From Candidatus Uhrbacteria bacterium RIFOXYC2_FULL_47_19 (GTDB lineage: Bacteria > Patescibacteriota > Patescibacteriia > SG8-24), in the NCBI GenBank assembly GCA_001791745.1, contig MGFG01000010.1:3351-67350 (forward strand): DNA of 64,000 nt, in the 5' to 3' direction. Shown in pieces: positions 3,652-48,764 of this stretch; the first letter of the stretch is position 1; each line of letters opens with the position of its first letter. The translations under genes and the position numbers were made by a program. The notes under the pieces were generated by a model, which did not search any database, was not told where the DNA came from, and saw nothing but the letters and a program-made list of their open reading frames with translations.

Positions 3652-3664
3652 AAAGAATTAACAG

Positions 3665-4072
3665 CTTCTGGGTCCCGGGTCTCGGCCCGGGACGACAGGG
3701 GGCTTTCTGGGTCCCGGGTCTTCGCCCTGGACGACAGGGGGCTCTGGGTCCCGGGTCTCGGCCCGGGACGACATGAAGTGGAGGGGGTCCGGAACGACAA
3801 TACTCTACTTGTCATCCCGGAAGGCCGAGCGGAGCGAGGTCTATCCGGGATCCAGGGTCCAGCTGATCCTTTTTTGCTTCTGGGTCCCGGATCTCGGCCC
3901 GGGACGACAGGGGGCTTTCTGGGTCACGGGTCTTCGCCCTGGACGACAGGGGGCTTTCTGGGTCACGGGTCTTCGCCCTGGACGACATGGTAGAGGGGTC
4001 CGGAACGACAATACTCTACTTGTCATCCCGGAAGGCCGAGCGGAGCGAGGTCTATCCGGGATCCAGCGATCG
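3665..4072. repeat. cluster of MITE-like palindromic repeat units (family with TGTC(A/G)TCCCGG termini, GTCCCGGGTCTCGGCCCGGGAC hairpin core)
   Basis: Two near-identical ~190-bp direct copies (approx 3668-3855 and 3865-4072). Each contains GGGTCCCGGGTCTCGGCCCGGGACGACA and TTGTCATCCCGGAAGGCCGAGCGGAGCGAGGTCTATCCGGGATCCAG. Confidence 0.8.
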
Positions 4073-4156
4073 GTCGGCCCACATATACCGAATATCACCG
4101 AACGACATAGACAGAAAGTAAAATTTTGAACACTCTCTATTTAAGAAGCTAAAGCC

Positions 4157-4447
4157 ATGAACGTCATCCGTGTTTCCGTCTCCGAGGCTGCCCGACTTTT
4201 TGGCGTCTCCACCAAGACCGTTCGCCGAGCTATTGCCGACGGTGAAATAACCTACGTGGTGGTTCGAGGACGTTACAAGATCAGTTTTGAGAGCTTGGTC
4301 AAATGGTCCCAACACCGACCATCAGTTAAGACCAAACTCGAAGAGGAGGGTATTGGCCAATTCGTCGGTCAATGGAAAATCAAGAATCGTCTTTACAGTC
4401 CCAATCCCCAAACTCTGGAACGGGAGACTCAAAAGATCCAGTCATGA
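4157..4447 (+). CDS. small helix-turn-helix DNA-binding protein (excisionase/MerR-like HTH_17 type)
   Basis: The motif SEAARLFGVSTKTVRRAIADGEI is typical of Xis/HTH_17 domains. The 96-aa ORF overlaps the next gene by ATGA. Confidence 0.5.
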   Translation: MNVIRVSVSEAARLFGVSTKTVRRAIADGEITYVVVRGRYKISFESLVKWSQHRPSVKTKLEEEGIGQFVGQWKIKNRLYSPNPQTLERETQKIQS

Positions 4448-6480
4448 ACTGCTGCCACAAGATACAACTAATGACGTTCGTCATCCTGCTGCTTGCCGTG
4501 ATGCCAAGTTTAGCTTCGGCCGAACTCAAGATAGCGCCGGACAAATTTGTTCGGTCAGCCAACTATTACCTAGAAGCAGGTATTGGCATTCCCCCCTCCG
4601 ATCATGAACGCTTGGCCAAATACGACCTGTTGATCCTGCCAGCTGAAGCCCAGATCTATAATCGAAGTCTGTTTACCGATCTACGACGTCTGAATCCGAA
4701 CATTACCATCCTAGCCTACGTTCCAACCAAGTCATACAACTTTCAATACTGGTTCGATAGTTTGCATGACAAGCTAGCTAATCGCATTCAAGATTCATGG
4801 TGGTTACTGAGCTCGTCAGGTGGACCCACTTCGGTCTGGCCCGGAACGCGAATGCTCAACATGGTTTCACCTTGGAGTAAAGAGTTACCTAAATATGTTA
4901 AAGAAGATATCTGGTCAACCGGACTCTGGGATGGAATCTTTTACGACGAATTTTCAGTCACTGCCTCTTGGGTGAACGGCGGCGACATCGACATTCACCG
5001 CAACGGAGTGCGTGATGATCCACGACTGGTCGATGTAGCTTGGGAACGAGCTACGATCAATATGTTACGTGACACCAGAGAACTACTTGGTCCGTCGGCC
5101 GTCATTATTACGAATGGAGATTCAGCCGCTTCGGTCCAACCGTATCTCAACGGACGGATGTATGAATCGTTTCCCACACCTTGGGAAGGTAGCGGTAAAT
5201 GGCAGGATTCATTTTCGAGTTATCTCCGGCTGCACAATGAAGTTGGTTACCGACCGGTTTTTGTCATCAACGCCAGTACGACCAGAAATCAAGGAGCGGC
5301 CAACTGTCGACAAGCTAGGTTCGCTCTGGCTTCAACTTTGATGGGAGATGGATTCTTTAGCTACGACCACGGCGAAGAAGAGCATAGCCAAATTTGGTGG
5401 TGCGATGAACAAGATGCCAATCTAGGCAATCCAATAGGACCGTCAATTAATCAGTCGACCGGTAACTCTGTAACAATGTCGGGGGTCTGGCGTCGCGATT
5501 TTGAAAACGGTGTCGCTCTTCTTAACTCGACAGACCGATCACAGACTATTTCGTTTGAGGCTGAAATGGAACGACTACGCGGCACACAGGATCCAACCGT
5601 CAACAACGGTCAAATTGCTAAGTCGGTCACTTTAGCGCCGCAGGACGGTATAATTCTACTAAGGCCAATTGGCTCCATCTCTGGTTCGGTTTTTATTAAC
5701 GGTGCTTTCGCTCGACTTTACGACCAGAACGGTCGCCAACTACGTAACGGATTCTTCGTTTATATACCGCCGTTCTCTGGTTCCGACCAAGTGCTTTTGG
5801 ACGACATTGATGGCGATGGCCACAAAGAACGGCTAGTGGCCAATCAAAAAGAGATCAGGATTTACGGATCCGATGGAAAACTACGCCTAACCTTCGAGCC
5901 GTACGGATCAAAATACTCACAGGGAGTCAGTCTGGCGGTTGGTGATGTGAATGGTGATGGACAAATTGAAATTGTAACCGGTACAGGACAAGGGGCCGAA
6001 CCGCTAGTTAAAATCTTTGACTTAAAAGGACAGCAGATTGGACCTGGCTTCATGGCCTATGGTCAACGCTTTCATGGTGGCGTTCATGTAGCGACCGGCG
6101 ACGTCTATGGTATCGGACGAGATATGATCATAACTGGTGCCGGACCGAGTGGTGGACCTCACGTTCGTGTATTTGATCGATATGGTCAGGTCTGGGCTCA
6201 ATTCTTTGCCTACGATCAACACTTCAGCGGTGGTGTCGAGGTGGCAGCTGGAGATTTAAACGGTGATGGACTAGACGAAATAGTGACCGGTGCTGGACCA
6301 GGAGGTGGTCCACATATCAGAATTTTCAACGTCTGGACCAAACCAATTGGTGGATTCTTTGTCGGCGACCCCAAAACATTCGCTGGGGTACATGTCGCTG
6401 TCTCAGATACAAACAACGACGGATACGACGAGATAATCGCCCTGTCGACCGATATATTCAAACTCTCGGCCGGCCGCTAG
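4445..6480 (+). CDS. secreted protein with C-terminal FG-GAP/VCBS-like beta-propeller repeats and N-terminal TIM-barrel glycoside-hydrolase-like region
   Basis: Signal peptide MTFVILLLAVMPSLASA. Repeated GDVNGDGQIEIVTGTG / GDVYGIGRDMIITGAGPSGGPHVRVFD / GDLNGDGLDEIVTGAGPGGGPHIRIFN motifs indicate FG-GAP repeats. The N-terminal domain call is low confidence. Confidence 0.55.
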
Positions 6481-6493
6481 CGACCATTTATAT

Positions 6494-8467: not shown

Positions 8468-8514
8468 CACAACTAACGGATACAGATACCAAAAAGCTCC
8501 CCCACGGGAGCTTT

Positions 8515-9699: not shown

Positions 9700-9958
9700 A
9701 ATACTGATCGATCTTTTTGATGCTTCTAAATAACCGCATACTTTAGCATAAAAAGTCGTTTTTGTCAAGTCTTTACTCCAGCCCAAAGAGGTCTAAGTCG
9801 AAGTAAAATAATCACAATTTAACTCAAAAAATAGCCAAAATAAGCCAAAAAACTTTATACACAATCAATCCTTGGCCGTCAGCTAAATTTCAGTTATATT
9901 GTCTTTTGAATGTATACGCCCAATCCACAACCAATCGACCTAACAAATAGGACGCGAG

Positions 9959-9987
9959 TAGAGCGAGCCAGGGGGGCTCTTTTTTTC
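9959..9987 (+). terminator. intrinsic terminator-like hairpin in asnA-like leader (GAGCC-AGGGG-GGCTC + T7)
   Basis: GC stem followed by TTTTTTT, read from sequence. No upstream plus-strand CDS. Confidence 0.4.
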
Positions 9988-10083
9988 TACATACCTATTT
10001 TACCGAAATGGACGACCATTCGACCGGCGGCGATCAGTTGCTTGTTGGCCGATGGCATCGGCATCATTCCCTATCGTCGTTTC

Positions 10084-10111
10084 GACGGACTGACAACAGT
10101 CCGTCTTTTTT
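10084..10111 (+). terminator. strong intrinsic terminator/attenuator hairpin GACGGACTG-ACAA-CAGTCCGTC + T6, 40 nt upstream of asnA-like start
   Basis: Perfect 9-bp stem plus T-run, read from sequence. Confidence 0.6.
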
Positions 10112-10152
10112 ATCCTGCCAATTAACCCCAATTGGGGAATAACCAAAAACGT

Positions 10153-11211
10153 ATGAGCGAACAGCTGCGTCACATTATTCCAATCTTCTCTACCATGCGC
10201 GAGGCAGCGCACACCCATTATCGCAAATCTGGTTTGATCCACGTGCCAGCTCCGCAGATCGTCGGAATTACTGGCGCTTGTGAAAATGTAGACACATTAT
10301 TTCGAGTTGGTAGTCGTGTTGGAGCTCAACTCTTCTTCTGTCAAACCGGACAATTAAACCTCGAACAGGCACTCCAGTACAATCCAGGTGTTTACACCAT
10401 TATGGTTAGTGGACGTGATGAGGAAATTGAAGACGATCGCCACTTACGTCAATTCAATCTAGCGGAAGAAGAGTTCGATTGGTCATTCGTTGGCGCTGAA
10501 GGTGAAACCTACAACGAAGAAAGGATGTACCAGGCACTACTCGAACACATCGAAACAACGGTCAAATCCATCGCCACAACAACAGTGGATCGACATGCAA
10601 CACTACTAGCTGACCGCTTTGACCGAGATGTCTCAGGTCTAGCGAATAGTTTGACCCTCCCCTTCCATCGAATCAGTTATGAGGAAGCGATTAGTCTGCT
10701 GAACAAAAATGGTTTCCCACAACTCAGCTGGGGCGCAGATTTGAAATCAGAACATGAAGCGAAGGTTGTGGAACTACTAGCTGGTGGAGAAATGCCGCGT
10801 CCAGTATTCATCATGCGTTATCCTAAAGAGATTAAATTCTTCAACATGAAGGTTTCGGAATCAGATGATCGGGTAGCAATGTCGGCTGATCTAGTCTTTC
10901 CACGTGCTGGCGAAGGTGTCGGATCGGCGGTCCGCGAACACAACGCAACCAAATTAGAGCAACGACTACTTGGATCGGAAATGTATCGGCTACACCTAGA
11001 ACGCGGTGGCAAGCTCGAAGACTTCCGCTGGTATCTTGATCTAGTAGCTTCAGGCGAAACTAAACCGCACGCTGGCTATGGCATTGGTCTAGAAAGAGTA
11101 GCCCAGTACATCCTCGATCGATCGGATATACGTGAGTGCTCGATCTTTAACCTGATGGCAATGCAGACCAAAGACTGGGTAGTGCGTCAACCTGTACCAA
11201 TGATGGCCTAA
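10153..11211 (+). CDS. class II aminoacyl-tRNA synthetase catalytic-core paralog lacking an anticodon-binding domain (AsnRS-like; probable AsnA-type aspartate-ammonia ligase)
   Basis: PVFIMRYPKEIKFFNM resembles AsnRS motif 2 and GYGIGLERVAQYIL resembles motif 3. At ~353 aa there is no N-terminal OB-fold domain. Start chosen at MSEQLRH; the ORF-track M is 7 codons upstream. Confidence 0.55.
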   Translation: MSEQLRHIIPIFSTMREAAHTHYRKSGLIHVPAPQIVGITGACENVDTLFRVGSRVGAQLFFCQTGQLNLEQALQYNPGVYTIMVSGRDEEIEDDRHLRQFNLAEEEFDWSFVGAEGETYNEERMYQALLEHIETTVKSIATTTVDRHATLLADRFDRDVSGLANSLTLPFHRISYEEAISLLNKNGFPQLSWGADLKSEHEAKVVELLAGGEMPRPVFIMRYPKEIKFFNMKVSESDDRVAMSADLVFPRAGEGVGSAVREHNATKLEQRLLGSEMYRLHLERGGKLEDFRWYLDLVASGETKPHAGYGIGLERVAQYILDRSDIRECSIFNLMAMQTKDWVVRQPVPMMA

Positions 11212-11238
11212 GGTTTAATCAATCAAAAAGGATAGTAT

Positions 11239-11280
11239 GAAAATACGGAGTCGAATATTCGTTCGACTCCGTATTTATAT
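11239..11280. terminator. bidirectional intrinsic terminator between convergent genes (ATACGGAGTCGAA-TATTC-TTCGACTCCGTAT flanked by A/T runs)
   Basis: 13-bp stem, A-run upstream and T-run downstream. Confidence 0.6.
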
Positions 11281-11304
11281 TGATTGAAATAATTTAACGT
11301 CGCA

Positions 11305-12531
11305 TTAGATCTTCTGACTTAAAACTCTCCTGTAAACTCCCATAATATTCTGATAGTGCTGTTCTGGCGAATAATTACGCTCAGCAACCTGACGTGCCGA
11401 ACGACCCATTCTCTCGCTGGACTTAGGGTCAGCCCATAATTTAGCCATGGCCTCAGCCAACCCAATAACATCACCGGATTGAACCAATTGACCAGTCTTT
11501 CCACTTTCAACAATTTCACTTAAACCACCCATTTGCGAAGCAATGACTGGCTTACCAGCAGCATAAGCCTCAAGTGCAGTAAGTCCAAAAGTCTCATGAC
11601 ACAACGATGGTATAACCACAAAACGGGCATTGGTGTACTCACGACGCAACTGCTCACCAACTTGATAACCGACGAAAGTTACATTGCGCAGTTTTAGTTC
11701 ATTGGCGAGATGTCGTAACCGTTCACCATCCGACCCAACACCAACGACACGAATCGGCAAATCGCCAACCATTGCAGCTGCCCGAATCAATGTTTCAACT
11801 CCCTTTTCTGATGACAACCGTCCAACATACAACGCATAATCACCCTCATAGCTCGGCTGCCAAGAAGACACATTAATAAAGTGAGGTATCTGAACAATTT
11901 TCTTGTGGTCGATACCATAATCCTTAAGCGTGGCGGCAACAAAAGCACTCGGAGCAATAACTACATCGATATTGTCGCGCCATAAACCCAATAGTCGGTG
12001 CAAACTCATCTCCGCAGCGCAAACCGCACTTGCAACCATCGAACCTCGCACGCAACGATGCTTGACCGCCTCCCAATAATGATCGGGTCTAGTATGTCTA
12101 CAAACCTGACCATCATGAAACAGGCTATAGTTCGGTGCAATTAGTTTGTAGTCATGTGCGGTCATCACTACCGGAATCCCCCGCCGCCGAGCAACTGGCA
12201 AAATGGACGGTGAAATCTGATGATAAATATTTTGAATGTGAACTAAGTCGGGCAAAGATTCACGAAGTAACGCCCCAAACTTATGCTTGGCCTCGAACGA
12301 ATACATATACCGACCGACTGTACGCAATCCCTGCCACGACATGGCCGATGCATCGCTTCGAACCGAACTAACAAACCAGCGATCCCATCCAGTTGATTCA
12401 TTCCGCCCGTCCTTCATAGCAAACGGAACTACTTCATGTCGGTGTTCAATCAAAAGATTGCGCAGATCAAACATATAGCGCTCAGCCCCACCCTTCAGAA
12501 AAAAATACTTGTTAGCAAAAATTATCTTCAT
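11305..12531 (-). CDS. glycosyltransferase family 4
   Basis: MKIIFANKYFFLKGGAERYMFDL at the N-terminus and HETFGLTALEAYAAGKPVIAS in the GT4 C-terminal domain. Confidence 0.7.
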   Translation of the reverse strand: MKIIFANKYFFLKGGAERYMFDLRNLLIEHRHEVVPFAMKDGRNESTGWDRWFVSSVRSDASAMSWQGLRTVGRYMYSFEAKHKFGALLRESLPDLVHIQNIYHQISPSILPVARRRGIPVVMTAHDYKLIAPNYSLFHDGQVCRHTRPDHYWEAVKHRCVRGSMVASAVCAAEMSLHRLLGLWRDNIDVVIAPSAFVAATLKDYGIDHKKIVQIPHFINVSSWQPSYEGDYALYVGRLSSEKGVETLIRAAAMVGDLPIRVVGVGSDGERLRHLANELKLRNVTFVGYQVGEQLRREYTNARFVVIPSLCHETFGLTALEAYAAGKPVIASQMGGLSEIVESGKTGQLVQSGDVIGLAEAMAKLWADPKSSERMGRSARQVAERNYSPEQHYQNIMGVYRRVLSQKI

Positions 12532-12553
12532 CTCGAATCACGAATGAGTCGAA

Positions 12554-14089
12554 TCATTTTAGGACACCCTCTTTTTTAGCTAAAACGTAAACACAGGCAG
12601 CAAAAAGCCATAAATACAACGCCAACGTGCGAACCTCGAGATAGGTCCCCAAAGCGGCTTGTAGAGTAATCGCCGCTAAGCCACCAACCAGCCCCAAGGC
12701 CAAACCCTTTAATAATGGGTCCCTAGATCGACACCAAACCCGCCAAGACATAATGGCTAACGCAATAAAAATCCAAACATAAAACACCAAACCGAGTGTT
12801 CCAATTTCACCCCACAGCGAAAACCAATTATTATCGATATATCCATCAGTGCCGTAGACACCGAACGGTAAGTTCAGTTCCTGATAGACGCGCACATTTC
12901 CCAAGGCTGCAGCTGCCCCACCACCGTACTGCCCAGGCCCAACACCAAAGATTGGTGAAGAAGGAACTACTGTCGTCACTGTTTGCACCAACCAATACAG
13001 TCGCCCCATGCCGTAATACTCGCCACGCCAACGCTCGTAGGAGAAGGCTTCAAACAAACGCTCGACTGCAGTCTGTTCGGGATAGTCGGTCAGATAACGT
13101 ACGGCCAGACCGGACCAAGCTAAGTAGCCAACCGCCAATACAATCATTGCTAGATAAGCAAGTCGAACTCGACGATCGCGCATTAACCAACCACCAATGA
13201 TTAGTAGTCCCAAAGCAAAACCAAACCAAGAGGCACGTGACATAGTTAGGAGCAGGGCCGGTAAAATCACAGCTAGCACAAAAATTAATCGACTACGCGT
13301 TAATCGACTACGAAGCGAGTACCATAATCCTACAGCTAGCAAACCAAAGAACGACAAGAACGTACCCAATTGATCGTATCGACCCATGGTCGCAAAAATT
13401 CTAGTACCTGGAGACCACGTCTGTTCGGTGCCACTCGTCAATTGAATACTCTCATAAAAGCGTTGCTCGCTAGGAATGAGTATTTCATCAAGTGGAGCAC
13501 CGACAAACGACTGAACGATACCCAATACCGATTCGAAAACCACTACCCCAAACATGGCCAAAACCAACCGGCGAACAAACCTACGCTCTGGTTCCAAATA
13601 AACCACAGCAAAGAACATCAACATGAACCGAATAATCTGTCGCAAACCTAACAATCCACTGAACCATGGAACCGCATTCAACACCAACGAAGTCAGTGCG
13701 ACTATCAAAAAGAAAACAAACGGTAGATCGATTGGTGTCGAAGTCAGCTCACGACGGCGCGATAGCACCTTAAGTACAGCAACAGCAACTAAGCCATAAA
13801 TCAATATCTCTGGCAGATAGCGAGCAAAGATATAGAGCTCATCAGGCACAAATTTAAGCAAGAACGGTTCGAATGGAGTGTAGATGGCCAGGGCCAGAAC
13901 CATGGTCTCGGGACGAAACAAAAGCAACCAAGCAATCATTAGCCCAGCAATCACACCCAACATCTTCCAAGGACCCAAAAACAAAACCGAAACTATGGTC
14001 AATGAAGTGACCAGAGCGAACAGAACAGCCAAACGACGATCGCCGGACGACCTAAATAGATTGGGGATCGATTCGAGTAAACTTTTCAT
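12554..14089 (-). CDS. O-antigen ligase/polymerase-like polytopic membrane protein (Wzy_C family)
   Basis: About 12 predicted TM helices. The LLTMSRASWFGFALGLLII stretch is typical of the O-antigen ligase loop region. Confidence 0.55.
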   Translation of the reverse strand: MKSLLESIPNLFRSSGDRRLAVLFALVTSLTIVSVLFLGPWKMLGVIAGLMIAWLLLFRPETMVLALAIYTPFEPFLLKFVPDELYIFARYLPEILIYGLVAVAVLKVLSRRRELTSTPIDLPFVFFLIVALTSLVLNAVPWFSGLLGLRQIIRFMLMFFAVVYLEPERRFVRRLVLAMFGVVVFESVLGIVQSFVGAPLDEILIPSEQRFYESIQLTSGTEQTWSPGTRIFATMGRYDQLGTFLSFFGLLAVGLWYSLRSRLTRSRLIFVLAVILPALLLTMSRASWFGFALGLLIIGGWLMRDRRVRLAYLAMIVLAVGYLAWSGLAVRYLTDYPEQTAVERLFEAFSYERWRGEYYGMGRLYWLVQTVTTVVPSSPIFGVGPGQYGGGAAAALGNVRVYQELNLPFGVYGTDGYIDNNWFSLWGEIGTLGLVFYVWIFIALAIMSWRVWCRSRDPLLKGLALGLVGGLAAITLQAALGTYLEVRTLALYLWLFAACVYVLAKKEGVLK

Positions 14090-14149
14090 AGCTGGGATGA
14101 TTGTATCATTTTTCCTCGGTGGATGCTGCTTTACTTGCGGTTCGGGGAT

Positions 14150-15165
14150 GACAAATAGAGTATCATCGTCCCAGACTCCGAGCCGGGGGCTAGGATGGAA
14201 TTCTTCAACAGTGGAAGCTCCTCTCCCCCGGGAACCCCGGCTCCGCTCCGCAGGGGACGGGGCTCACGCCCCGGACTCCCTTTCTTTAACCTAGAGGAGT
14301 TCCTCTCCCCCAGGACCCCCGGCCCGGTTTCTCTGTCCCGTTAGAGAAATGAGGGAAAGAGAGCGGCCGCCCTAACTCCCACTATGTGTGGGACCTTATG
14401 TCCTCGGGCCGGACGGGCCTCCGGCGCATACCGTCGCGGCACGGGATGACATATTAAAGCACTGTCGTCCCGAAACTGCGAACTGAACATTATTCCTCCT
14501 GTCGTCCCGGAACTGCGAACTGAACATTATTCCTTTTGTCGTCCCGGAACTGCGAGTGTAGCGAGCAGTATCCGGGACCCAGGAGTAAAGAGATTGGAAT
14601 TAGCTTCTGGATCCCGGATAGACCTCGCCTTGCTCGGTCTTCCGGGATGACAAACTATTAAGAGTTGCATTTCCGGGATGACAAATTAAAAAGGCTCGAG
14701 GTTTCAAGATGACATATTAAAAAGTAAGGATGACAAATACATAAGAAGAATTGAGATAACAAAAAACACTGTCGTCCCGGACCGAAACCCGGGACCCAGG
14801 ATGTTTCTCTTCAGCTAATGTCGTCCCGGAAGGAGCGCAGCGACTATCCGGGACCCAGGAGTAAAGAGATTGGGATTAGCTTCTGGATCCCGGATAGACC
14901 TCGCCTTGCTCGGCCTTCCGGGATGACAAATTAAAATACTGTCGTCCCGGAACTGCGAGTGTAGCGAGCAGTATCCGGGACCCAGGAGTAAAGAGATTGG
15001 GATTAGCTTCTGGATCCCGGATAATTGCTAACGCAATTTCCGGGATGACAAACTATTAAGAGTTGCATTTCCGGGATGACAAACTATTAAGAGTTGCATT
15101 TCCGGGATGACAAACTATTAAGAGTTGCATTTCCGGGATGACAAAGATTTTCTAAAAATCAAGAT
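14150..15165. repeat. large composite cluster of the MITE-like repeat family incl. tandem arrays
   Basis: Contents: multiple TGTCGTCCCGG / CCGGGATGACA / CTGGATCCCGGATA modules; a 35-bp unit x2 (~14463-14540); a 32-bp unit TTTCCGGGATGACAAACTATTAAGAGTTGCAT x3.5 (15037-15150). Segment ~14443-14805 is ~90% identical to 22528-22813. Confidence 0.85.
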
Positions 15166-15313: not shown

Positions 15314-16087
15314 CTAGTCGAGGTTACCAGCCGGGATGACTGGACCGTCCTCCGAGTCGGTAGTGACTCGGATGGAACAACCATCCTCCTGGCAGTAAAT
15401 GTAGGCCCGATCGGCCTCACACATGACTGCCAGCTGTTCCTCCCCTCCGTACTGAGCCCAACCGTCACGGGCGGGATTTGCTCTACCACAGTCATATCGA
15501 CCGCGGTAGGAGAACCGATAGGACACTCCCTCTACAAGATGAGGGTGACCATCGGTCTCGAGCCAACCGTCGGCATTGGAGTCGACGGCTACGGCCAAAG
15601 CATCCGACCAGGTGCCTCCGGGGAGTTCGCCGAGGATGTCGGCGCACTCGTTTCCGGAAATATACGAACTGTTAAATTCGTACTCTCCGTCGGAGTTCAC
15701 CCGGAACGGACCGGGGACGCAGTCCCCGTCCGCGTCGCACTCGGCGCCGAAGCCGTCGCCGTCCAGGTCGGCCTGGTCCGGGTTGGCGATCTCGGGGCAG
15801 TTGTCGGCGTCGTCGAGCACGCCGTCGCTGTCGATGTCACAGACGGTGTCACTGTCGCTATCGGCATCGGCGTCGACATCGGAGTCGGCGTCGACATCGG
15901 AGTCGGCATCGGAGTCGGCGTCGACATCCGAGTCGGCATCGGTATCCGAGTCGGCGTCGCTATCCGCGTCGCCGTCGCACTCGCCGTCGGGGCACTGCTG
16001 CTCCTCCGGCGGTTGAAGGCCGCACCCCCCGAAGAGGGCGACGACCGCCACGAACAACCACCAACCAACAAAAAGCTTCTTTGCCAT
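15314..16087 (-). CDS. lipoprotein with (D-A/S-D-S) repeats and thrombospondin type-3-like calcium-binding repeats; GC-rich
   Basis: Signal peptide with lipobox MAKKLFVGWWLFVAVVALFGGCG, preceded by a GGAGGAG RBS. Repeat DADSDADSDTDADSDVDADS, then DNCPEIANPDQADLDGDGFGAECD (TSP3-like). About 65% GC, against ~45% in surrounding genes. Confidence 0.6.
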   Translation of the reverse strand: MAKKLFVGWWLFVAVVALFGGCGLQPPEEQQCPDGECDGDADSDADSDTDADSDVDADSDADSDVDADSDVDADADSDSDTVCDIDSDGVLDDADNCPEIANPDQADLDGDGFGAECDADGDCVPGPFRVNSDGEYEFNSSYISGNECADILGELPGGTWSDALAVAVDSNADGWLETDGHPHLVEGVSYRFSYRGRYDCGRANPARDGWAQYGGEEQLAVMCEADRAYIYCQEDGCSIRVTTDSEDGPVIPAGNLD

Positions 16088-16245
16088 TTCTCTACTCCTC
16101 CAGGGCCGCCCCGTCCTCATTTTACGAGGCGGCCCCAAGCTGTTTCTGTCACACGGCCTTTAACCCAGCCACGGGCCGGACTTACGTCCGGGGTTTGGTT
16201 CCGATTTATCCCGCTACCAAGCGAGACCAGGTTCGGAAATTAACC

Positions 16246-16362
16246 TGTTTTTTCTGGATCCCGGATCAAGTCCGGGACGACATTATTTGTCAGATCGACA
16301 TTTTTGTCAGATCGACAAACTCTGTCATCCCGGGCCGAGACCCGGGATCCAGCAACGACATT
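16246..16362. repeat. short MITE-like repeat unit between the two GC-rich genes
   Basis: CTGGATCCCGGATCAAGTCCGGGACGACA ... TTTGTCAGATCGACA x2 ... TGTCATCCCGGGCCGAGACCCGGGATCCAG. Confidence 0.7.
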
Positions 16363-16374
16363 CAACCGCTGGGT

Positions 16375-17664: not shown

Positions 17665-18140
17665 TTTCCTGGGTCCCGGGTCTCGGCCCGGGACAACATT
17701 ATTTTATTTGTCATTCTTACTTTTTCTATTTGTCATCCCGGAGATGCAACCCTTAATAGTTTGTCATCCCGGAATCGTGAGCGAGCGTAGCGAGTCGAAC
17801 GATATCCGGGATCCAGAATCCGATCGGTTTTGCTTCTGGGTCCCGGATCAAGGTCGAGCCGCAGGGGAGGCCTGAACTGCTTCAGACCGACACGGCGAGA
17901 CCGGCGAGGCGATGTCCGTAGACCGAGGACCGCCGAGTCGCCGGGACGACATTATCTCGCTTGTTATTCTTACTTTCTTCTCTATTTGTCATCCCTGAAC
18001 CATTTTCTTTCTTAGTTTGTCATCCCGGAATCGTGAGCGAGCGTAGCGAGTCGAACGATATCCGGGATCCAGAATCCGATCTTTTTTACTTCTGGGTCCC
18101 AGATAGCCGCTGTCGCGACTTCCGGGACGACAAAAAATCC
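17665..18140. repeat. MITE-like repeat cluster with two ~70-bp near-identical copies
   Basis: GTTTGTCATCCCGGAATCGTGAGCGAGCGTAGCGAGTCGAACGATATCCGGGATCCAGAATCCGATC occurs at ~17757-17825 and ~18017-18083. GGGTCCCGGGTCTCGGCCCGGGAC at 17672. A GC-rich spacer sits between the copies. Confidence 0.8.
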
Positions 18141-18206
18141 TAAACAAAAAAACGCATCTCTATAACAGAAACGCGTTTCTTAAAACTCAAACCTAAAAAA
18201 TCCAAA

Positions 18207-18869: not shown

Positions 18870-18959
18870 AGAAACACTATTCCGTCAATCCTACGTGGGC
18901 CTTTTGAATGTTCAAACAATTGGAATTCAGTCCAAAGCGAACCCAAACTTCACCATAAT

Positions 18960-20099: not shown

Positions 20100-20114
20100 A
20101 TTGTTTGTTCAAAC

Positions 20115-22170: not shown

Positions 22171-22289
22171 ACAGCACTGAGTATAGCAACGCTTAAAGGT
22201 CGCGGTCAATCGTCTTCATATAGGGTAAATCTTAGCTTTTGGCTCTCTAAAGTTATTGCGCGGATCAAATCAGAATTTGATGTTGTTGT

Positions 22290-22835
22290 TTGGAATTCTT
22301 CTCTTTCAGACTCCTTTCTTTAATCCGGGGGACTTCCGGTCCCCCAGGACCCCGACCTTGTTTCTCTGTCCCGCGCGGCACGGGTCGGCCCGCTCCGGTG
22401 GCGGTCCGCCCTAACTCTCGGCGTCCGGCCCTCGCCTACCGGCTCGGGACCCAGCCCGGACGTCTCCGAGATTGCCGCGGGAGGTATGCGCCGTGGAGAT
22501 CGGATCGTGGATCCCGGGTCTCGGCCCGGGATGACATATTAAAGCAATGTCGTCCCGGAACTGCGAACTGAACATTATTCCTTTTGTCGTCCCGGAACTG
22601 TGAGCGTAGCGAGCAGTATCCGGGACCCAGGAGTAAAGAGATCGGAATTGGTTTCTGGATCCCGGATAATTGCTGACGCAATTTCCGGGATGACATATTA
22701 AAAAGGCTTAAGGTTTCAAGATGACAAAATAAAAAGTAAGGATGACAAATACGTAAGAAGGATTGAGATAACAAAAAACACTGTCGTCCCGGACTTGATC
22801 CGGGACCCAGGAGCAGAAAAAGAAAAACACCGCAT
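22290..22835. repeat. second long copy of the composite MITE-like repeat (paralog of 14270-14805)
   Basis: Module order is shared with the 14.2-14.8 kb cluster. Segment 22528-22813 is ~90% identical to 14443-14805 apart from a ~50-bp indel. Confidence 0.85.
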
Positions 22836-22880
22836 AAGAGCGGTGTGGAGGTGTTGTGAGGTTTTAAGAAAAAAGCCTGA

Positions 22881-23567
22881 TTAGGCCACTAGGATCAAAG
22901 GAACATCTGGTTGGTTCTTCAGCCAGGCGACGGGCGGCGTAACGGCCGAAAGGCGAACTAACGGAGCCAGTCTAGCTGCCTCATCCTTCTTCCCGATCAG
23001 AACGAAGCTGAGATAGAAGAACAGGCTGGCCCAGAGGCTGGCTCTGAGGCTGACCCTGAGGCTGTCCTCAAGACTGTCCCCAAGACTGCCCGAGAGGCTG
23101 ACCCTGAGGCTTTCCCAGAGGTTGTCCGAGAGGCTGACCCTGAGGATGCCTGAGAGACTGTCCCTGAGGCTTTCCCAGAGGTTGTTCCCGAGGCTGCCCC
23201 CGAGACTGCTCCAGAGGCTGAGCCCGAGGCTGTCCCAGAGGCTACCCCCAAGGCTGCCCGAGAGGCTGTCCAGATAGGCAGCTTCGGACATCCACTCTGG
23301 CCTTTTGAAGGGCTCGGAGACTGAGAGCAGCTCTACTTCCTTCACCTCACGACCGGTGGCCAAGGCTATGGCCCGAACAATAGCTTCTCTGTTCACCTCA
23401 TCCGCCGGAGTGAACTGGAACTGTTCACGTTCGGCTTGGATGAACAGACCCCCGATGGTCTCCATGGCTTTATCGATTTCGGCCTCGGTGACACCGTTGT
23501 GTTTCTCCTCTAAAAGAAAAGACTTCAGACCCTCACGGTCGACGACCGGCTTGTCTTCTTGTCCCAT
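22881..23567 (-). CDS. hypothetical protein with C-terminal degenerate (S-L-x-x-S-L/W-E-S-L-R) tandem repeats
   Basis: The N-terminal 100 aa are non-repetitive (MGQEDKPVVDREGLKSF...), preceded by a GAAGGAG RBS. The C-terminal half is encoded by a GC-rich ~15-nt tandem repeat (gaggctg(a/t)ccctgag...). Confidence 0.4.
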   Translation of the reverse strand: MGQEDKPVVDREGLKSFLLEEKHNGVTEAEIDKAMETIGGLFIQAEREQFQFTPADEVNREAIVRAIALATGREVKEVELLSVSEPFKRPEWMSEAAYLDSLSGSLGGSLWDSLGLSLWSSLGGSLGNNLWESLRDSLSGILRVSLSDNLWESLRVSLSGSLGDSLEDSLRVSLRASLWASLFFYLSFVLIGKKDEAARLAPLVRLSAVTPPVAWLKNQPDVPLILVA

Positions 23568-23639
23568 TTTTTAACTCCTTCTGTCCGACCCAATGGCCGT
23601 GACGAAGCAACTTAACATGATGAGATAGTGAGGTCAAAG

Positions 23640-24010
23640 ATTGATGTAGATTCTGGATCCCGGATAGACCTCGCTCCGCTCGGCCTTCCGGGATGACAAA
23701 ATAAAAAGGCTCGAGGTTTCAAGATGACATATTAAAAAGTGAGGATGACAAATTAAGAAAGGTTGCGGTTTCGGGATGACAAATTAAAAAGTAAGGATGA
23801 CAAATTAAGAAAGGTTGCGGTTTCGAGATGACAAATAAAACACTGTCGTCCCGGGCCGAGACCCGGGACCCAGGAGTAAAATCGATCGGCTTCTGGATCC
23901 CGGATAGACCTCGCCTTGCTCGGTCTTCCGGGATGACATATTAAAAAGGCTTAAGGTTTCAAGATGACAAAATAAAAAGTAAGGATGACAGATAAAAATA
24001 GAAAGGTTTG
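23640..24010. repeat. MITE-like repeat cluster (GATGACAAAT iteron-like direct repeats + TCCCGG palindromes)
   Basis: GGATGACAAATTAAGAAAGGTTGCGGTTTCG(G/A)GATGACAAAT x2, plus CTGGATCCCGGATAGACCTCGC(T/C)...TCCGGGATGACA modules shared with the other clusters. Confidence 0.8.
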
Positions 24011-24083
24011 CAATTTCGAGATGACAAATAAAATGAACCAAAACCACCTCCCGCAATCCCAGTTTAGCTGGGATCTCAGGAGG

Positions 24084-24475
24084 TGGTGGAGATGGGGAGA
24101 TTTGAACTCCCGTCTGGTGAGTCGCTCCACGATACTTCTACCGATGTATTCCGTCTTGGTGTTTCGGGGTGGTGATGTTAGACGAACCAAACCCACCATC
24201 CCTATTTCCGTGCCAGGTCGGACCGCGCTACGGAAAGAGGCGCGGACCCAATCCGATATATGACACCCGGATCCCAACTATCGGACGTCGTTGGGTCGGA
24301 TGGGCATTCGGTTAAGCGAACGCCGAAGCGGTAACGGGCGAGAAAGCCGAAGCCATCGCGCTCTTCACCTTGCTGACAAAATTGGCGTGTATGTCATTGC
24401 CCTGAGATTTACGAGGTGCAGGCGCCCTCGACCGGCATATCGCGAAAGGATCTCCCATCGATCCCTGTCATCCCC
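24084..24475 (-). ncRNA. ssrA: tmRNA (SsrA)
   Basis: Minus-strand RNA starting GGGGAUGACAGGGAUCGAUGGG and ending ...GGGAGUUCAAAUCUCCCCAUCUCCACCA. A 7-bp acceptor stem GGGGAUG/CAUCUCC carries a G3:U70 pair (the Ala identity element). It has a T-arm GGAGUUCAAAUCUCC and a CCA end. It sits directly next to smpB. An internal frame ends ...GCUUCGGCGUUCGCUUAA (stop rc at 24312-24314). Confidence 0.8.
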
Positions 24476-24554
24476 CACCAACCGGGCAATATCTGCTCGA
24501 CTGATGACGAAGGACAGATTCTTTGATCATCAACACCGAAACACGATCTAATTT

Positions 24555-24998
24555 TTACTCTCTAAGATCCCTTTGTACGTCCCTAGCAATGTCCCGTTGC
24601 TTCTTCTGTTCCTTCTTCTCGTACTCCTTTCTGCCGCGTGCTAAACCGAACTTCAGCTTGATCATAGAACCCTTAGTATAGACAGAAATCGGCACCAAAG
24701 TCAAGCCTTTAACCTTCATTTTTCCCGCCAATTTAGCGATTTCTCGTTTGTGAATCAGCAACTTTCGAGTGCGCTTAGGATCGAAGTCTTTCAACTTACC
24801 AGCCTTGGGGTACAGCGGAATATGAGCATTTATCAGACGGGCTTCACCACTCGCAATAGTGATATAGGAACCAGTTAGCTTCATTTGCCCATCCCGAATC
24901 GATTTAACTTCGTGTCCAGACAACACTAAACCAACTTCGATTTCATCGATAACTTGAAAATCGCGTAGCGAACGTCGGTTGTCGGCTAGAGTTGGCAT
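24555..24998 (-). CDS. smpB: SsrA-binding protein SmpB
   Basis: Full-length similarity to the SmpB family (VIDEIEVGLVLSGHEVKSIRDGQMKL...; LLIHKREIAKL; basic C-terminal tail). Confidence 0.9.
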   Translation of the reverse strand: MPTLADNRRSLRDFQVIDEIEVGLVLSGHEVKSIRDGQMKLTGSYITIASGEARLINAHIPLYPKAGKLKDFDPKRTRKLLIHKREIAKLAGKMKVKGLTLVPISVYTKGSMIKLKFGLARGRKEYEKKEQKKQRDIARDVQRDLRE

Positions 24999-25174
24999 GA
25001 GTTCAGCTCTTAATACCGATGATTATCAACTTTTTAAGCAAATAAGGCAATAATCGACCTCAAACGACCAGTTAGCGCAGCCCAACCAGAAAACAAACCA
25101 TTCAGCCATCCAAAGCTTTACAAAATCACCGTAAACCCTTATCCTTTGCCCAGTAATTCATTATCTATACAGCC

Positions 25175-25729
25175 TTGAGGATCTCGAGAAAAAAAAGAAG
25201 GCCGCAACAACAGCAACGGGTCATCTATCCAGTCAACGAAAGAATTCGTGAACCAGAGCTACGAGTCATTGTCGATGACACTGGTGAACACTTGGGTATT
25301 TTAAAGACGCCTGACGCACTAACTGCGGCCAAGGAACTCAAATTGGATCTAGTTGTTGTTCAGCCTAAGACTGAACCACCGATTGCCAAGATCATCGACT
25401 TCGGTCGTTACAAGTACGAAAAAGAGAAAGAAGCGAAAGCTCAGAGGACCAATGCCAAGACGGTCGAGGTCAAAGGAGTGCGTCTATCTACTCGTATCGG
25501 CGACCATGACCTGAATGTACGCAAAGATCAGGCCAAAAAGTTTATGGAAAAAGGTAACAAGGTCAAAGTTGAGATTATCCTACGTGGTCGCGAAAAACGC
25601 CATGGTGATGTAGCAGCCCAAGTCATTCAACGATTTATGACCGAGCTTAATCTCGAGGTTCCAATCAAGATCGAGCAACCGGTCACACGCCAAGGCGGAC
25701 AGTTGACAAGCATCATTGCTAAGGCGTAA
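25175..25729 (+). CDS. infC: translation initiation factor IF-3
   Basis: INERIREPELRVIVDDTGEHLGIL ... KIIDFGRYKYEKEK ... LRGREKRH is a typical IF-3 pattern. The true start may be non-ATG. Confidence 0.85.
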   Translation: MRISRKKRRPQQQQRVIYPVNERIREPELRVIVDDTGEHLGILKTPDALTAAKELKLDLVVVQPKTEPPIAKIIDFGRYKYEKEKEAKAQRTNAKTVEVKGVRLSTRIGDHDLNVRKDQAKKFMEKGNKVKVEIILRGREKRHGDVAAQVIQRFMTELNLEVPIKIEQPVTRQGGQLTSIIAKA

Positions 25730-25763
25730 GCTAGCGAACGCCTGGTGAAGACTTATACCACTT

Positions 25764-25949
25764 ATGAAGACACATAAAGCACTGTCCAAACGGTTCGGCG
25801 TCACCCGTACGGGTAAGGTCCTAAAGAGGACCGCCGGCCAGGACCACTTCAATTCCCGCGAAAGCGGCAAGGTTACACGCGGCAAACGCCGGGACCGACA
25901 AATATCGGATTCCTTCGTGAAGACCATAAGGCAGTTGATCCAGAAGTAA
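25764..25949 (+). CDS. rpmI: 50S ribosomal protein L35
   Basis: A 61-aa basic protein (MKTHKALSKRFGVTRTGKVLKR...) between infC and rplT. Confidence 0.85.
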   Translation: MKTHKALSKRFGVTRTGKVLKRTAGQDHFNSRESGKVTRGKRRDRQISDSFVKTIRQLIQK

Positions 25950-25950
25950 T

Positions 25951-26298
25951 ATGCCGAGGGTAAAAAGAGGCACAATTCATTTGAAGCGACGTAAAGCCAT
26001 CCTCGAGAAGACCAAGGGCTTCATGTGGGGACGGAAGAGTAAGCTCAAGCTCGCCCAGACTGCCGCAGTCAAGGCTGGTGTTTACGCCTACCGCGACCGA
26101 CGAAACAAGAAACGGGTCATGCGTCGACTCTGGCAAATCAAGCTCAATGCCGCCGCTCGATTGCATGGTCTGTCCTACAGCCGTTTAATCGACGCTTTGA
26201 AAAAGGCTGGTGTGACACTTGATCGTCAAGTTATGTCCAAGATAGCAGCCGAACGACCCAATACTTTCAAGGCTATCGTGGATGCGGTCAAAAAGTAG
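25951..26298 (+). CDS. rplT: 50S ribosomal protein L20
   Basis: MPRVKRGTIHLKRRKAILEKTKGF...RLWQIKLNAAARLHGLSYSRLI is typical of L20. Confidence 0.9.
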   Translation: MPRVKRGTIHLKRRKAILEKTKGFMWGRKSKLKLAQTAAVKAGVYAYRDRRNKKRVMRRLWQIKLNAAARLHGLSYSRLIDALKKAGVTLDRQVMSKIAAERPNTFKAIVDAVKK

Positions 26299-26479
26299 GA
26301 AAGCTTGGCGAACTAGAATAATCGCTAGCTAAGGCGCACTCCAATGGGGTGCGTTTTGGGTTTAAAGTTTAATTAAGATTGCGGAGCCTTATTTGGGCTA
26401 GGACTTGACAGATTAAACTGAAAGTGTTAAGTTGGCCTGTCATGCGCTTAAGTAGCGCCACTGACAGAAGGAGGAAGAG

Positions 26480-27082
26480 ATGAAGAAGGTACTGTTTTGG
26501 GCCGGAATCGGCCTGGTCGCGTTCGCTGTCCTGGTGGTGGTCGTTGGACTGGTCCGACGACCTCCGCGGTCGCGTGGCGACAATCAGGTCGCTCAGGCGG
26601 CCGAAGCGGAACCCGCGGCCGAACCGTCGGCCCCGGCCACCGACGACGAGAGCTCGGCCGACCCAGCCACCGACGACGAGAGCTCGGCCGACCCAGCCAC
26701 CGACGACGAGAGCCCGACCGACCCGGCCCCCGCCGACGACAGCTCGGCCGAAGCGGAACCCGCGGCCGGAAACATCCTAGGGCAAACCGAGACCTCAATT
26801 ACCATATCCGGTATCGAGGTCGAGGGACAGGGTAATGCCTCGATATCCATCGAAGGCAATACCTTGGTGACGAACTCACCTTCTCGGGTGACGTTCGTCC
26901 AACCGGCTCCAGGCACGGAGCCGGCCAATGGAACCGCGGTCGTCGACCGCGGCGCCCCGCTCTCCAGAATCGTGATCGACCGGTCGGGTCAGCCGACCAC
27001 GGTCACTATGGAGAACGGCCGGCTGGTCCGACGGGGACCAGCCCACGTCACCTTCGAGGTGGCGTCCGCATCGCCGCAATAG
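26480..27082 (+). CDS. GC-rich membrane-anchored hypothetical protein with 3x (PATDDESSAD) tandem repeat
   Basis: A strong RBS AAGGAGG sits 8 nt upstream. N-terminal TM (VLFWAGIGLVAFAVLVVVVGLV). A 30-nt tandem repeat ccaccgacgacgagagctcggccgacccagc x3 at ~26637-26725. GC is ~68%. Overlapping alternative-frame ORFs were rejected. Confidence 0.55.
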   Translation: MKKVLFWAGIGLVAFAVLVVVVGLVRRPPRSRGDNQVAQAAEAEPAAEPSAPATDDESSADPATDDESSADPATDDESPTDPAPADDSSAEAEPAAGNILGQTETSITISGIEVEGQGNASISIEGNTLVTNSPSRVTFVQPAPGTEPANGTAVVDRGAPLSRIVIDRSGQPTTVTMENGRLVRRGPAHVTFEVASASPQ

Positions 27083-27141
27083 CGGTGCACAGCCGGAAGA
27101 AGCGCTGCCGCAATGGCGGCGCACGAACAAAAGACTTAGAA

Positions 27142-27174
27142 AACCCCGAGGCTAGCCTCGGGGTTCCTTTTTTC
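27142..27174 (+). terminator. rho-independent terminator AACCCCGAGG-CTAG-CCTCGGGGTT + T-run
   Basis: Perfect 10-bp stem followed by TCCTTTTTTCT. Confidence 0.8.
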
Positions 27175-27260
27175 TACAATCAAAAAGCTGCCCAAACCGC
27201 CCACCTCCCCGGGACTTGAACTTTATTCCGGCTTCGTCTATATTGTCCTTGCTGTTAAAT

Positions 27261-27338
27261 GGACCGGTGGTGTAGCCCGGTTAACACGTCTCCCTGTCAC
27301 GGAGAAGATCGAGGGTTCGAATCCCTTCCGGTCCGCCA
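27261..27338 (+). tRNA. tRNA-Asp (anticodon GUC)
   Basis: GGACCGGUGGUGUAGCCCGGUUAACAC G UCUCC CUGUCAC GGAGA ... GGUUCGAAUCC ... CCGGUCC G CCA gives a cloverleaf with anticodon GUC. CCA is encoded. Confidence 0.85.
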
Positions 27339-27364
27339 GGCAAAAGCGCGCCCAACGGCGCGTT

Positions 27365-27800
27365 TTTGCGTTTATTCAATCTATGTCATCCCGGAACCGC
27401 ACTCCTTCTCAATTTGTCATCCCTGAACCGCACTCCTTCTCAATTTGTCATCCCGGAAGACCGAGCGAAGCGAGGTCTATCCGGGATCCAGAAGCAGGCC
27501 AGTCTTTACCTGGATCCCGGGTCTCCGCCCGGGACGACAGGGAGAAGGAAGGCTAACTCACAAAAAGCACTTGTCGTACCTCATTCAATTCATGTCATTC
27601 CGAAACCGCACTCCTTCTCTAATATGTCATCCCGGAAGACCGAGCGAGGCGAGGTCTATCCGGGATCCAGAAGCAGACTGGTCTTTACCTGGGTCCCGGG
27701 TCTCCGCCCGGGACGACAAGAGAGGGTTGGATCCCGACTCAGAAGCCGGGACGACAAGAGAGGGTTGGATCCCGACTCAGAAGCCGGGACGGCAAGAAAA
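27365..27800. repeat. MITE-like repeat cluster: tandem duplication of a ~175-bp unit with TGTCATCCCGG / CCGGGACGACA termini
   Basis: Units ~27400-27545 and ~27590-27725 each contain TGTCATCCCGGAAGACCGAGCGA(A/G)GCGAGGTCTATCCGGGATCCAG...TGG(A/G)TCCCGGGTCTCCGCCCGGGACGACA. A 31-bp unit (gggacgacaagagagggttggatcccgactcagaagcc) repeats at 27730-27790. Confidence 0.85.
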
Positions 27801-48733: not shown

Positions 48734-48764
48734 GACTTGTTCTTAATCTAAGAGAGATGATCGA

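Follow-up and report, generated by a model that had tools for sequence, protein, structure and literature searches.

Dense intergenic arrays of oriented hairpins in a Candidatus Uhrbacteria genome are probable targets of an Ssn-type GIY-YIG nuclease

Site-specific single-stranded DNA nucleases (Ssn) are GIY-YIG proteins of about 95 aa (family cd10448) that act on short hairpin repeats (Chenal et al., Nat Commun 2025, PMC11893778). The general name of these repeats is SRM; those of Neisseria are called NTS (CGTCATTCCCGCGMAVGCGGGAATCYRG) and represent dRS3 in an oriented form. At least one SRM was present near 71% of the ssn homologues, and SRMs stood on both sides of 42% (PMC11893778). Here, we describe a family of hairpin repeats in a 64,000-nucleotide stretch of Candidatus Uhrbacteria bacterium RIFOXYC2_FULL_47_19 (contig MGFG01000010.1, positions 3,351 to 67,350 of the forward strand; hereafter the window), a bacterium of the candidate phyla radiation (CPR). 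The repeats very probably belong to the same class, and their cognate enzyme is probably an Ssn-family nuclease of about 98 aa encoded just outside the window, inside a pair of such hairpins with inward-facing tails. The window is otherwise an ordinary bacterial chromosome segment with genes for tmRNA, SmpB, IF3, L20, tRNA-Asp, FtsZ/FtsA, HisRS, topoisomerase I, DprA and RelA. Its placement in the Patescibacteria/CPR is borne out by T4SS_pilin-domain proteins of giant size and by close relatives that bear the names Uhrbacteria or Parcubacteria.

The Ssn hairpins are oriented by a 5' tag and a 3' tail. SsnA binds the hairpin only as single-stranded DNA (ssDNA) and only on the tag-to-tail strand, and cuts a few nt 5' of the tag; cutting depends on the GTC of the tag, binding on the C after the palindrome, and the RNA form is neither bound nor cut. 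This biochemistry is known from Neisseria and Wolbachia homologues. Deletion of ssnA increased transformation by NTS-bearing DNA about five-fold, and NTS clusters surround membrane and surface genes (PMC11893778). A related description is that of the CGTC-tagged repetitive extragenic palindromic (REP) sequences, families CGTC-1 to CGTC-4, with a tag CGTC that is often TGTC and can also be CCTC, a tail of 3 nt similar to CCA and a stem of 8-9 bp starting with A,T (Di Nocera, De Gregorio, Rocco, BMC Genomics 2013, PMC3733652). They were found in Alphaproteobacteria including C. crescentus, in Rickettsia and Coxiella and in several other phyla. They were reported to have 'no dedicated transposase', no REP-associated tyrosine transposase (RAYT) gene was flanked by them, and many were argued to be transcribed on the basis of G.T pairs and a location 3' of genes (PMC3733652). 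The third comparable case are the Neisseria intergenic mosaic element (NIME) arrays, which were reported as unobserved outside Neisseria and whose unit number varies (Bentley et al., PLoS Genet 2007, PMC1797815).

A sequence-only reading of the window had proposed modular repeats in seven or more intergenic clusters. Motif counts far above expectation confirmed the repeats, in seven clusters from 3665-4066 to 27384-27794 (Table 1). Across the 64 kb, the 22-nt palindrome GTCCCGGGTCTCGGCCCGGGAC gave 11 matches at up to three mismatches (0 expected), the arm TGTCRTCCCGG 53 matches at up to one mismatch (2.0 expected), 51 of them inside 3.66-27.8 kb, and the arm CTGGRTCCCGG 36 matches (1.5 expected). 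All matches to both arm types except four fell inside 3.66-27.8 kb. In the seven clusters, all of them intergenic, some 50 arms and roughly 31 complete hairpins were counted, and repeats account for about 14% of the sequence over 24 kb of this CPR genome. Clusters 3 to 6 were recovered with 100% identity in independent assemblies (L002, L004 and L006), and the repeats are therefore no assembly artefact. The copy number in clusters 2, 6 and 7 varied among assemblies, so the exact numbers given for these three are uncertain. Searches of Rfam at the gathering threshold and then at E values up to 5 retrieved the tmRNA and tRNA genes only and no family for the repeats; a full-text literature search with the arm sequences returned unrelated primer matches only.

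The unit is a single oriented hairpin with non-complementary flanks, 5'-TGTC, (A/G)TCCCGG ... CCGGGA(T/C), CCAG-3', read on the opposite strand as CTGG...GACA. It consists of four parts, the unpaired tag TGTC, a conserved stem base, a variable apex and the unpaired tail CCAG. The apex is either a loop of 4-6 nt or a self-pairing insert of 15-35 nt that extends the stem; among the distinct unit sequences of the window, eight have an insert of 7-8 nt (loop of 4-6 nt) and twelve have inserts of 18-45 nt. Long inserts were also common in other genomes, with length peaks at 18 and 24 nt, and they folded better than shuffled inserts (mean z about -2). Conservation ended exactly at CTGG and GACA, as the flanks beyond were random in 160 units from other genomes. 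The closing pair of the stem covaried in the window (A-T in 13 units, G-C in 11, A.C in two). The tag TGTC stood ahead of the stem in 51 arms between 3.66 and 27.8 kb, in agreement with the HGTC tag of SRMs, and CCAG followed the stem in 34 arms, in agreement with the C directly after the palindrome and the SRM tail CYNB.

Hairpins were often paired, and the pairs with inward tails and outward tags, separated by spacers of 18-24 nt, predominated in the window (eight, against three with inward tags and two in the same orientation), in related CPR loci (79, 42 and 13, respectively) and in other genomes (23, three and two). Single hairpins were frequent as well, and conserved on their own. The arrays further contain half-sites, in which only the tag and the stem's 5' half are kept and which are repeated in tandem at spacings of 31, 37 or 52 nt, as well as GC-rich mosaic spacer modules, pieces of which recur in other arrays. 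Likenesses of the ATCAAGT loops to the tRNA T-arm and of the repeats to the end repeats of Tn7 or CRISPR-associated transposons were dropped as unsupported.

The candidate partner gene was approached in two ways. Clustering of neighbouring genes in 120 hairpin-selected loci from other genomes revealed no dominant neighbour and one three-member GIY-YIG cluster, and clustering of open reading frames (ORFs) in CPR loci yielded mostly spurious ORFs reading through the repeats. The second approach considered ORFs flanked on both sides by arms in related CPR loci. A GIY-YIG ORF of 98 aa (P0001; Pfam PF01541, E = 3e-18, residues 5-79) was located exactly in the spacer of a tails-inward pair, TGTC-hairpin-CCAG / CTGG-hairpin-GACA (L171/L183); this single domain spans most of a protein whose length falls within the range of Ssn (~94-100 aa). 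The flanked cassette was also present in a sister species (L148 and L136). In a Rhodospirillaceae genome (L037), the hairpins lay a few nt from the stop end of the ORF and about 10 nt from its start, and in L203 the cassette was found between housekeeping genes with 2-3 nt between hairpins and ORF. Ssn-type GIY-YIG genes abutted the hairpins in three of the 120 hairpin-selected loci. A differing arrangement was observed in L105 (5054-5446), where the Ssn homologue was flanked by another CGTC hairpin, CGTC-ATCCTAGGCC-ttgt-GCCTAGGAC-CCC, with the stem ATCCTAGG and the tags facing the gene. This suggests that nuclease and stem sequence vary together and that the cassette has no fixed architecture; the stem types among these hairpin systems comprised ATTCCCGC, ATCCCCGC, ATCCCGGR and ATCCTAGG.

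The association held when the hairpin sequence was not used for selection. Among 38 homologues of the nuclease retrieved from IMG/VR, 17 had CGTC-type hairpins within 150 nt of the gene, 12 of them on both sides, and hairpin density was 4.07 per kb near the gene vs 0.23 per kb farther off. The residues Y9, Y20 and E67 of P0001 were invariant in 33 homologues (alignment A2) and correspond, at a constant offset of +3, to Y6, Y17 and E64 of SsnA from N. meningitidis (numbering from PMC11893778). The nearest solved structures were the UPF0213 proteins 1zg2 and 1ywl, and NCBIfam contained no specific model for the P0001 family.

Several observations connect the gene to this genome. P0001 was present in all six samples that carry the SmpB contig of the window, and the hairpins flanking it are each one base off units of the window. 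In the sister species, ssn directly follows an ORF of ~1350 aa, the 3' part of which is the homologue of window positions 1-2213, and synteny with L192/L195 places ssn about 5 kb left of position 1. Contig L160, 100% identical to positions 1-3868, ends inside an IS200-like tnpA, and the ssn contig L183 starts inside that tnpA. The most economical reading of these data is the order window, ~1350-aa ORF, array with an IS200 insertion, ssn, with ssn about 5 kb left of position 1. From co-occurrence and synteny, and across contigs that are not contiguous, we infer that the same genome carries an ssn homologue flanked by the motif. The insertion sequence (IS) at this junction is of the IS200/IS605 type and encodes a Y1 transposase of ~143 aa (PF01797, E = 4e-29); a full copy was found in L169 (3925-4422) and partial copies at the ends of L160, L183, L182 and L141, in or beside arrays at no fewer than two sites. 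Its tnpA bears its own subterminal hairpins, CCACGCCCTTGGGCGTGG and CCACGGGCTTGCCCGTGG, which are in direct orientation like those of ordinary IS200 and unrelated to the TGTC hairpins. The sequence-only reading had found no transposase, which is true inside the window; the IS200-family tnpA, like ssn, lies just past its left end.

The locus shares with the Ssn/SRM system the oriented hairpin with HGTC tag, conserved stem base and C-rich tail, the hundreds of intergenic copies grouped around membrane or surface genes, and the single-domain GIY-YIG gene of ~95 aa that is flanked by hairpins and keeps the catalytic Tyr, Tyr and Glu. It differs in the stem, (A/G)TCCCGG instead of the published ATTCCCGC, in the G at the first stem position of about half of the window units, in apical extensions of 15-35 nt in most units, in the tandem half-site arrays and in the host, a Parcubacteria/Uhrbacteria-like CPR bacterium, in which enzyme and motif form a putative pair. 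With the CGTC REPs the units have in common the tag, the CCA tail, a stem of 8-9 bp from A,T (TGTC / ATCCCGGR...YCCGGGAT / CCA(G), where about half of the units begin with G,T and a compensating C), the absence of a repeat-flanked transposase, a distribution across phyla (Caulobacter, Rickettsia, Coxiella) and a predominance of head-to-head dimers with a negligible share of same-orientation pairs, assuming that 'head-to-head' denotes inward tails. In contrast to the loops of 4-5 nt and the rare clusters of that family (Table 1 of PMC3733652), long loops, seen in twelve distinct sequences vs eight with short inserts, and large clusters dominate here, and CPR hosts lay outside the 2013 survey. 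The intragenic peptide VIPGLDPGIH listed in the supplement of PMC3733652 corresponds, in our own back-translation, to a GTCATCCCGG-type hairpin ending in GGGATCCA.

The NIME arrays of Neisseria resemble the window in their mosaics of short hairpins, their families of spacer modules of 20-200 bp, their conserved positions with a unit number that varies between strains and their flanking of surface-protein genes (PMC1797815), and their RS elements resemble the GC-rich mosaic spacer modules. The array architecture alone is shared. The dRS3 core is ATTCCC-N8-GGGAAT and that of the window ATCCCGG or GTCCCGG; dRS3 is a target of a filamentous phage and an IS110-like integrase, neither of which was seen here. 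The system is of an already known kind, with CGTC REPs described since 2013 and Ssn/SRM since 2025. What is new is its host lineage, how dense the arrays are, the variant form of the hairpins and the half-site arrays.

Some observations weigh against the assignment to Ssn. The ssn gene was not found in the 64-kb window; as the contigs break in the array and the IS200 copy, its link to this genome depends on synteny and on its presence in the same samples. Only two of the ~31 window units matched the published SRM pattern HGTCWYN(0-2)YYVSBRHN(0-5)WNVSBRGN(0-2)RNCYNB, a search heuristic and not a biochemical definition, and it is therefore by analogy to the described enzymes that this Ssn would recognise (A/G)TCCCGG hairpins, including long-loop and G-variant units. 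The pattern misses most units because of the G at the first stem position and the overlong loops; relaxed to A/G at position 5 and to loops of up to 40 nt, it retrieved 31 cluster units, 33 in the whole window and about two in shuffled sequences. The tests of strand asymmetry disagreed with each other: in other genomes, the closing position was G.T on the CTGG-to-GACA strand 60 times vs A.C five times, and such a G.T is an A.C mismatch on the strand that Ssn reportedly binds. In CPR long hairpins the tag-to-tail strand folded better, which conflicts with this asymmetry, and neither result was relied upon. Finally, a role in transformation in this organism would be carried over from Neisseria.

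Four other explanations were weighed. The sequence-only reading had considered the repeats as REP-like substrates, and the comparison with REPs stands, as CGTC-tagged REPs and NTS/SRM are the closest relatives; the enzyme it had in mind, a RAYT, IS200 or Tc1-like transposase, gives way to the GIY-YIG Ssn. Mobilisation as REP sequences or REPINs by a RAYT or an IS200/IS605-type Y1 transposase would account for the asymmetric flanks, the inverted doublets and the mosaics reminiscent of bacterial interspersed mosaic elements (BIMEs), and an IS200-family tnpA indeed sits in the array just left of the window. The REP/BIME-RAYT and REPIN systems of Enterobacteria and Pseudomonas also have an unpaired tetranucleotide tag and a single-copy gene, with its own repeats on both sides, for a nuclease that acts on hairpins in ssDNA. 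Their tag is GTAG, though, and their enzyme an HUH Y1 transposase, whereas the tag here is CGTC/TGTC and the enzyme a GIY-YIG nuclease; that tnpA has unrelated hairpins of its own, Y1 homologues occurred in none of the 120 hairpin-selected loci vs three with Ssn-type genes, and the literature offers no RAYT flanked by CGTC REPs (PMC3733652), all of which makes such an origin very unlikely. QMITE2 of Coxiella, a GTAG REP, was set aside as a different family. The same reading had also named recombination sites and non-autonomous mobile elements, the latter similar to miniature inverted-repeat transposable elements (MITEs). Classical MITEs would derive by deletion from an IS with a DDE transposase, have terminal inverted repeats of 11 bp and show target-site duplications. 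Tails-inward dimers do start with TGTCRTCCCGG, end with CCGGGAYGACA, span 100-175 bp and occur in multiple copies. The supposed unit of 110-175 bp around an inner hairpin nevertheless resolved into two or three separate TGTC/CCAG-flanked hairpins, so that its terminal repeats are the outward-facing tags of two inverted hairpins. What is conserved is a non-complementary tag and tail and not an extended inverted repeat, single hairpins stand alone, and no DDE transposase was found in the window. DDE-type MITEs were rejected because target-site duplications were lacking, the flanks of 23 isolated dimers matching in 2, 0, 1 and 0 cases for k = 2 to 5, which is near chance; we regard this origin as highly improbable.

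A function at the RNA level, with the repeats as terminators, mRNA stabilisers or small RNAs and their conservation due to RNA structure, is suggested by the stable hairpins with compensatory apical stems and by the arguments of Di Nocera et al. for transcription (PMC3733652). It is at odds with the missing Rfam match, with the occurrence of units in either orientation and, in clusters 1 and 2, between divergent genes, and with the indifference of SsnA to the RNA form (PMC11893778). T-runs followed only ~5% of the units in other genomes, and intrinsic terminators were rejected because of this rarity. Such a function is unlikely to explain the repeats, and it could coexist as a side effect. There is next to no probability that they reflect local duplication or assembly collapse without a biological system. 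Contigs often end in arrays (L160, L174, L183), and copy number differs between assemblies, which speaks for such an origin; against it stand the agreement of independent assemblies on clusters 3 to 6 and the presence of the modules in over 100 genomes from other phyla as well as on dozens of further contigs.

Near-identical assemblies differed by whole tandem units only. Cluster 7 had one extra composite unit (about 180-250 bp) in another assembly, a segment of ~250 bp of cluster 2 was absent in another and a 52-nt unit of cluster 6 was absent in L003, while insertion polymorphism at the arrays was not found among the compared assemblies. This points to growth and shrinkage of the arrays through slippage or unequal recombination between units, similar to the variation in unit number described for NIME arrays (PMC1797815). 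Beyond the window, the lineage-specific module TGTCATCCCGGAAGRCCGAGC matched 55 metagenome stretches of the JGI, about 46 of which had no other homology to the window and many of which share samples with it; the modules are hence not confined to this locus. The generic hairpin pattern was present on at least 120 genome stretches of many phyla, among them Alpha-, Beta-, Gamma- and Deltaproteobacteria (with Caulobacter, Rhizobiales, Rickettsia, Coxiellaceae and Burkholderiales), Saccharibacteria, Parcubacteria, Daviesbacteria, Azambacteria and others. Some long-loop variants were nearly identical between Coxiellaceae and this CPR genome.

Table 1 Hairpin clusters of the window, their parts and their neighbours
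Feature	Position	Strand	Description
Cluster 1	3665-4066		~211-bp composite, two copies
Cluster 1, composite content			per copy three short-loop hairpins, one partial arm and one long-loop hairpin
Cluster 1, short-loop hairpins			CTGGGTCCCGGGTCTCGGCCCGGGACGACA on + strand; tag-to-tail on - strand
Cluster 1, long-loop hairpin		+	TGTCATCCCGGAAGGCCGAGCGGAGCGAGGTCTATCCGGGATCCAG
Cluster 1, left neighbour	2820-3467	-	sigma-70/ECF factor (divergent)
Cluster 1, right neighbour	4157 onward	+	HTH_17/GHL15 gene (divergent)
Representative long-loop hairpin	3810-3855	+	TGTC, stem ATCCCGGA, 22-nt self-pairing apical insert, stem TCCGGGAT, CCAG
Cluster 2 (largest)	14143-15143		~10 complete hairpins, five loop types
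Cluster 2, other parts			tails-inward dimers with 24-nt spacers; tandem half-sites; GC-rich mosaic spacer
Cluster 2, left neighbour	12554-14089	-	Wzy_C O-antigen ligase-like gene
Cluster 2, right neighbour	15314-16138	-	secreted aspartate-rich repeat lipoprotein gene
GC-rich mosaic spacer module	14154-14452		bounded by outward-facing degenerate tag arms
Three half-sites, 37-nt spacing	14463-14547	+	TGTCGTCCCGGAACTGCGAACTGAACATTATTCCTYY; last runs into complete hairpin 14537-14582
Representative tails-inward dimer	14940-15050		TGTC-hairpin-CCAG 14940-14985 (+), 24-nt spacer, CTGG-hairpin-GACA 15010-15050 (tag-to-tail on -)
Four tandem 31-nt half-sites	15040-15143	-	TGTCATCCCGGAAATGCAACTCTTAATAGTT on - strand; tag and 5' palindrome half only
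Cluster 3	16254-16352		two short-loop hairpins, tags inward, 40-nt spacer, between convergent genes
Cluster 4	17669-18132		256-bp composite, two copies, 33-nt-insert hairpins (TGTCATCCCGGAATCGTGAGCGAGCGTAGCGAGTCGAACGATATCCGGGATCCAG)
Cluster 5	22444-22810		paralogue of part of cluster 2, 81.8% over 302 columns, one 37-nt unit difference
Cluster 6	23653-24033		three complete hairpins and tandem 21-, 31- and 52-nt half-site repeats (GGATGACAAAT...)
Cluster 7	27384-27794		~179-bp composite, two copies here, three in L001
Cluster 7, left neighbour	27261-27338	+	tRNA-Asp
Cluster 7, right neighbour	27814-30309	-	pyruvate phosphate dikinase gene, 3' end

The representative long-loop hairpin of cluster 1 is one base off the hairpin directly upstream of the ssn gene in L183, and the representative dimer of cluster 2 has the same architecture as the one enclosing ssn genes. 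Clusters 2 and 5 are paralogous, as the sequence-only reading had stated for two segments of ~300 bp; the identity of ~90% given there has to be replaced by the value in Table 1, which includes the 37-nt indel, or by ~93% with the gap excluded. Cluster 3 lies inside a stretch that aligned at 88.5% with the related species L127. This species also carries an array at the site that corresponds to cluster 4, between flanking genes of 83-88% identity, with a different unit content. The clusters had also been thought to bracket every compositionally foreign gene. They do delimit blocks of G+C content (0.43-0.49 at 4-14 kb and 0.59-0.62 at 15-17 kb), but adjoin ordinary genes and the genes for tmRNA and tRNA-Asp as well. 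Sub-segments of the mosaic module in cluster 2, combined in various ways, were seen again in window 22309-22373 and in no fewer than 14 other CPR loci. These GC-rich (~65%) non-coding modules (L132, L149, L163, L165, L180 and others) consist of sub-segments of ~80-150 nt that are reordered between loci, and they had no Rfam match.

Further observations were made at or near the arrays. A gap of 50 nt separates the end of cluster 6 from the 3' end of the tmRNA gene (24084-24475, - strand). The 5' end of this gene (24466-24476) reads GGGGGATGACA and resembles a 3' arm plus tag, CCGGGATGACA; this likeness is probably due to chance. Directly right of cluster 1 stands an HTH_17 ORF (4157-4447, excisionase/MerR-like), and in an unrelated genome (L202, 3932-4141) a second HTH_17 gene was noted at a distance of 1.6 kb from the ssn cassette, which may be a coincidence. 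In the 99.8%-identical assembly L001 (7500-7690, corresponding to window 27338-27372), ~190 bp are inserted right after tRNA-Asp, and the last ~50 nt, the tRNA 3' end and terminator, are duplicated at the far side; the arrangement resembles the attL/attR pair of a small element that has integrated there, or of what remains of one.

Other features of the window were noted as well. The otherwise syntenic relative L174 lacks positions 9773-11327, which hold a class-II tRNA-synthetase-like paralogue of 359 aa (PF00152, ORF 10132-11211) with its flanks, and has ~147 bp instead; this indel is not flanked by hairpin repeats. Two coding tandem repeats were observed, one with a period of 12 nt (23011-23283) in the ORF 22881-23567 for an SLxxSLG-like low-complexity protein and one with a period of 30 nt (26595-26774) in the ORF 26480-27082, of which one unit is absent at 26665 in L001 and L003. 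Window 38678-51020 comprises two ORFs of very large size, 3351 aa and 751 aa, with an N-terminal T4SS_pilin/TrbC-like domain and Ig-like repeats, a combination typical of CPR surface proteins, and contains no hairpin repeats.

By analogy with the Neisseria and Wolbachia homologues, the Ssn of this organism would cut hairpin-bearing ssDNA, for instance the incoming strand during transformation; DprA is encoded in the window. The loci flanked by arrays encode glycosyltransferases, the Wzy-like ligase, a Wzz-like protein, the secreted aspartate-rich repeat lipoprotein, a coiled-coil envelope protein and low-complexity proteins, and the arrays may modulate ssDNA recombination at such envelope and surface loci as NTS/NIME arrays do in Neisseria. 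The arrays change by the gain and loss of units seen between assemblies, and the hairpin-ssn-hairpin cassette would represent the autonomous form from which gene-less hairpin dimers derive. One may speculate further, although we hold this to be doubtful, that in Patescibacteria with tiny genomes, which are thought to depend on DNA uptake, the Ssn/SRM system diversified into a variant with G-C closing pair, long apical stems and half-site arrays. Its NIME-like arrays could then provide programmable sites at which ssDNA is cut on entry or during replication, and so gate the exchange of surface and envelope cassettes, and hairpin-ssn-hairpin could be the autonomous mobile form that seeds dimers.

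If the assignment is correct, as we consider probable, an unexplained and very dense repeat landscape can now be attributed to a characterised system of enzyme and motif. It would extend Ssn/SRM to Parcubacteria-like bacteria and supply a concrete enzyme-substrate pair. Surveys with the published SRM pattern will undercount SRMs, because that pattern misses most units of the variant described here.

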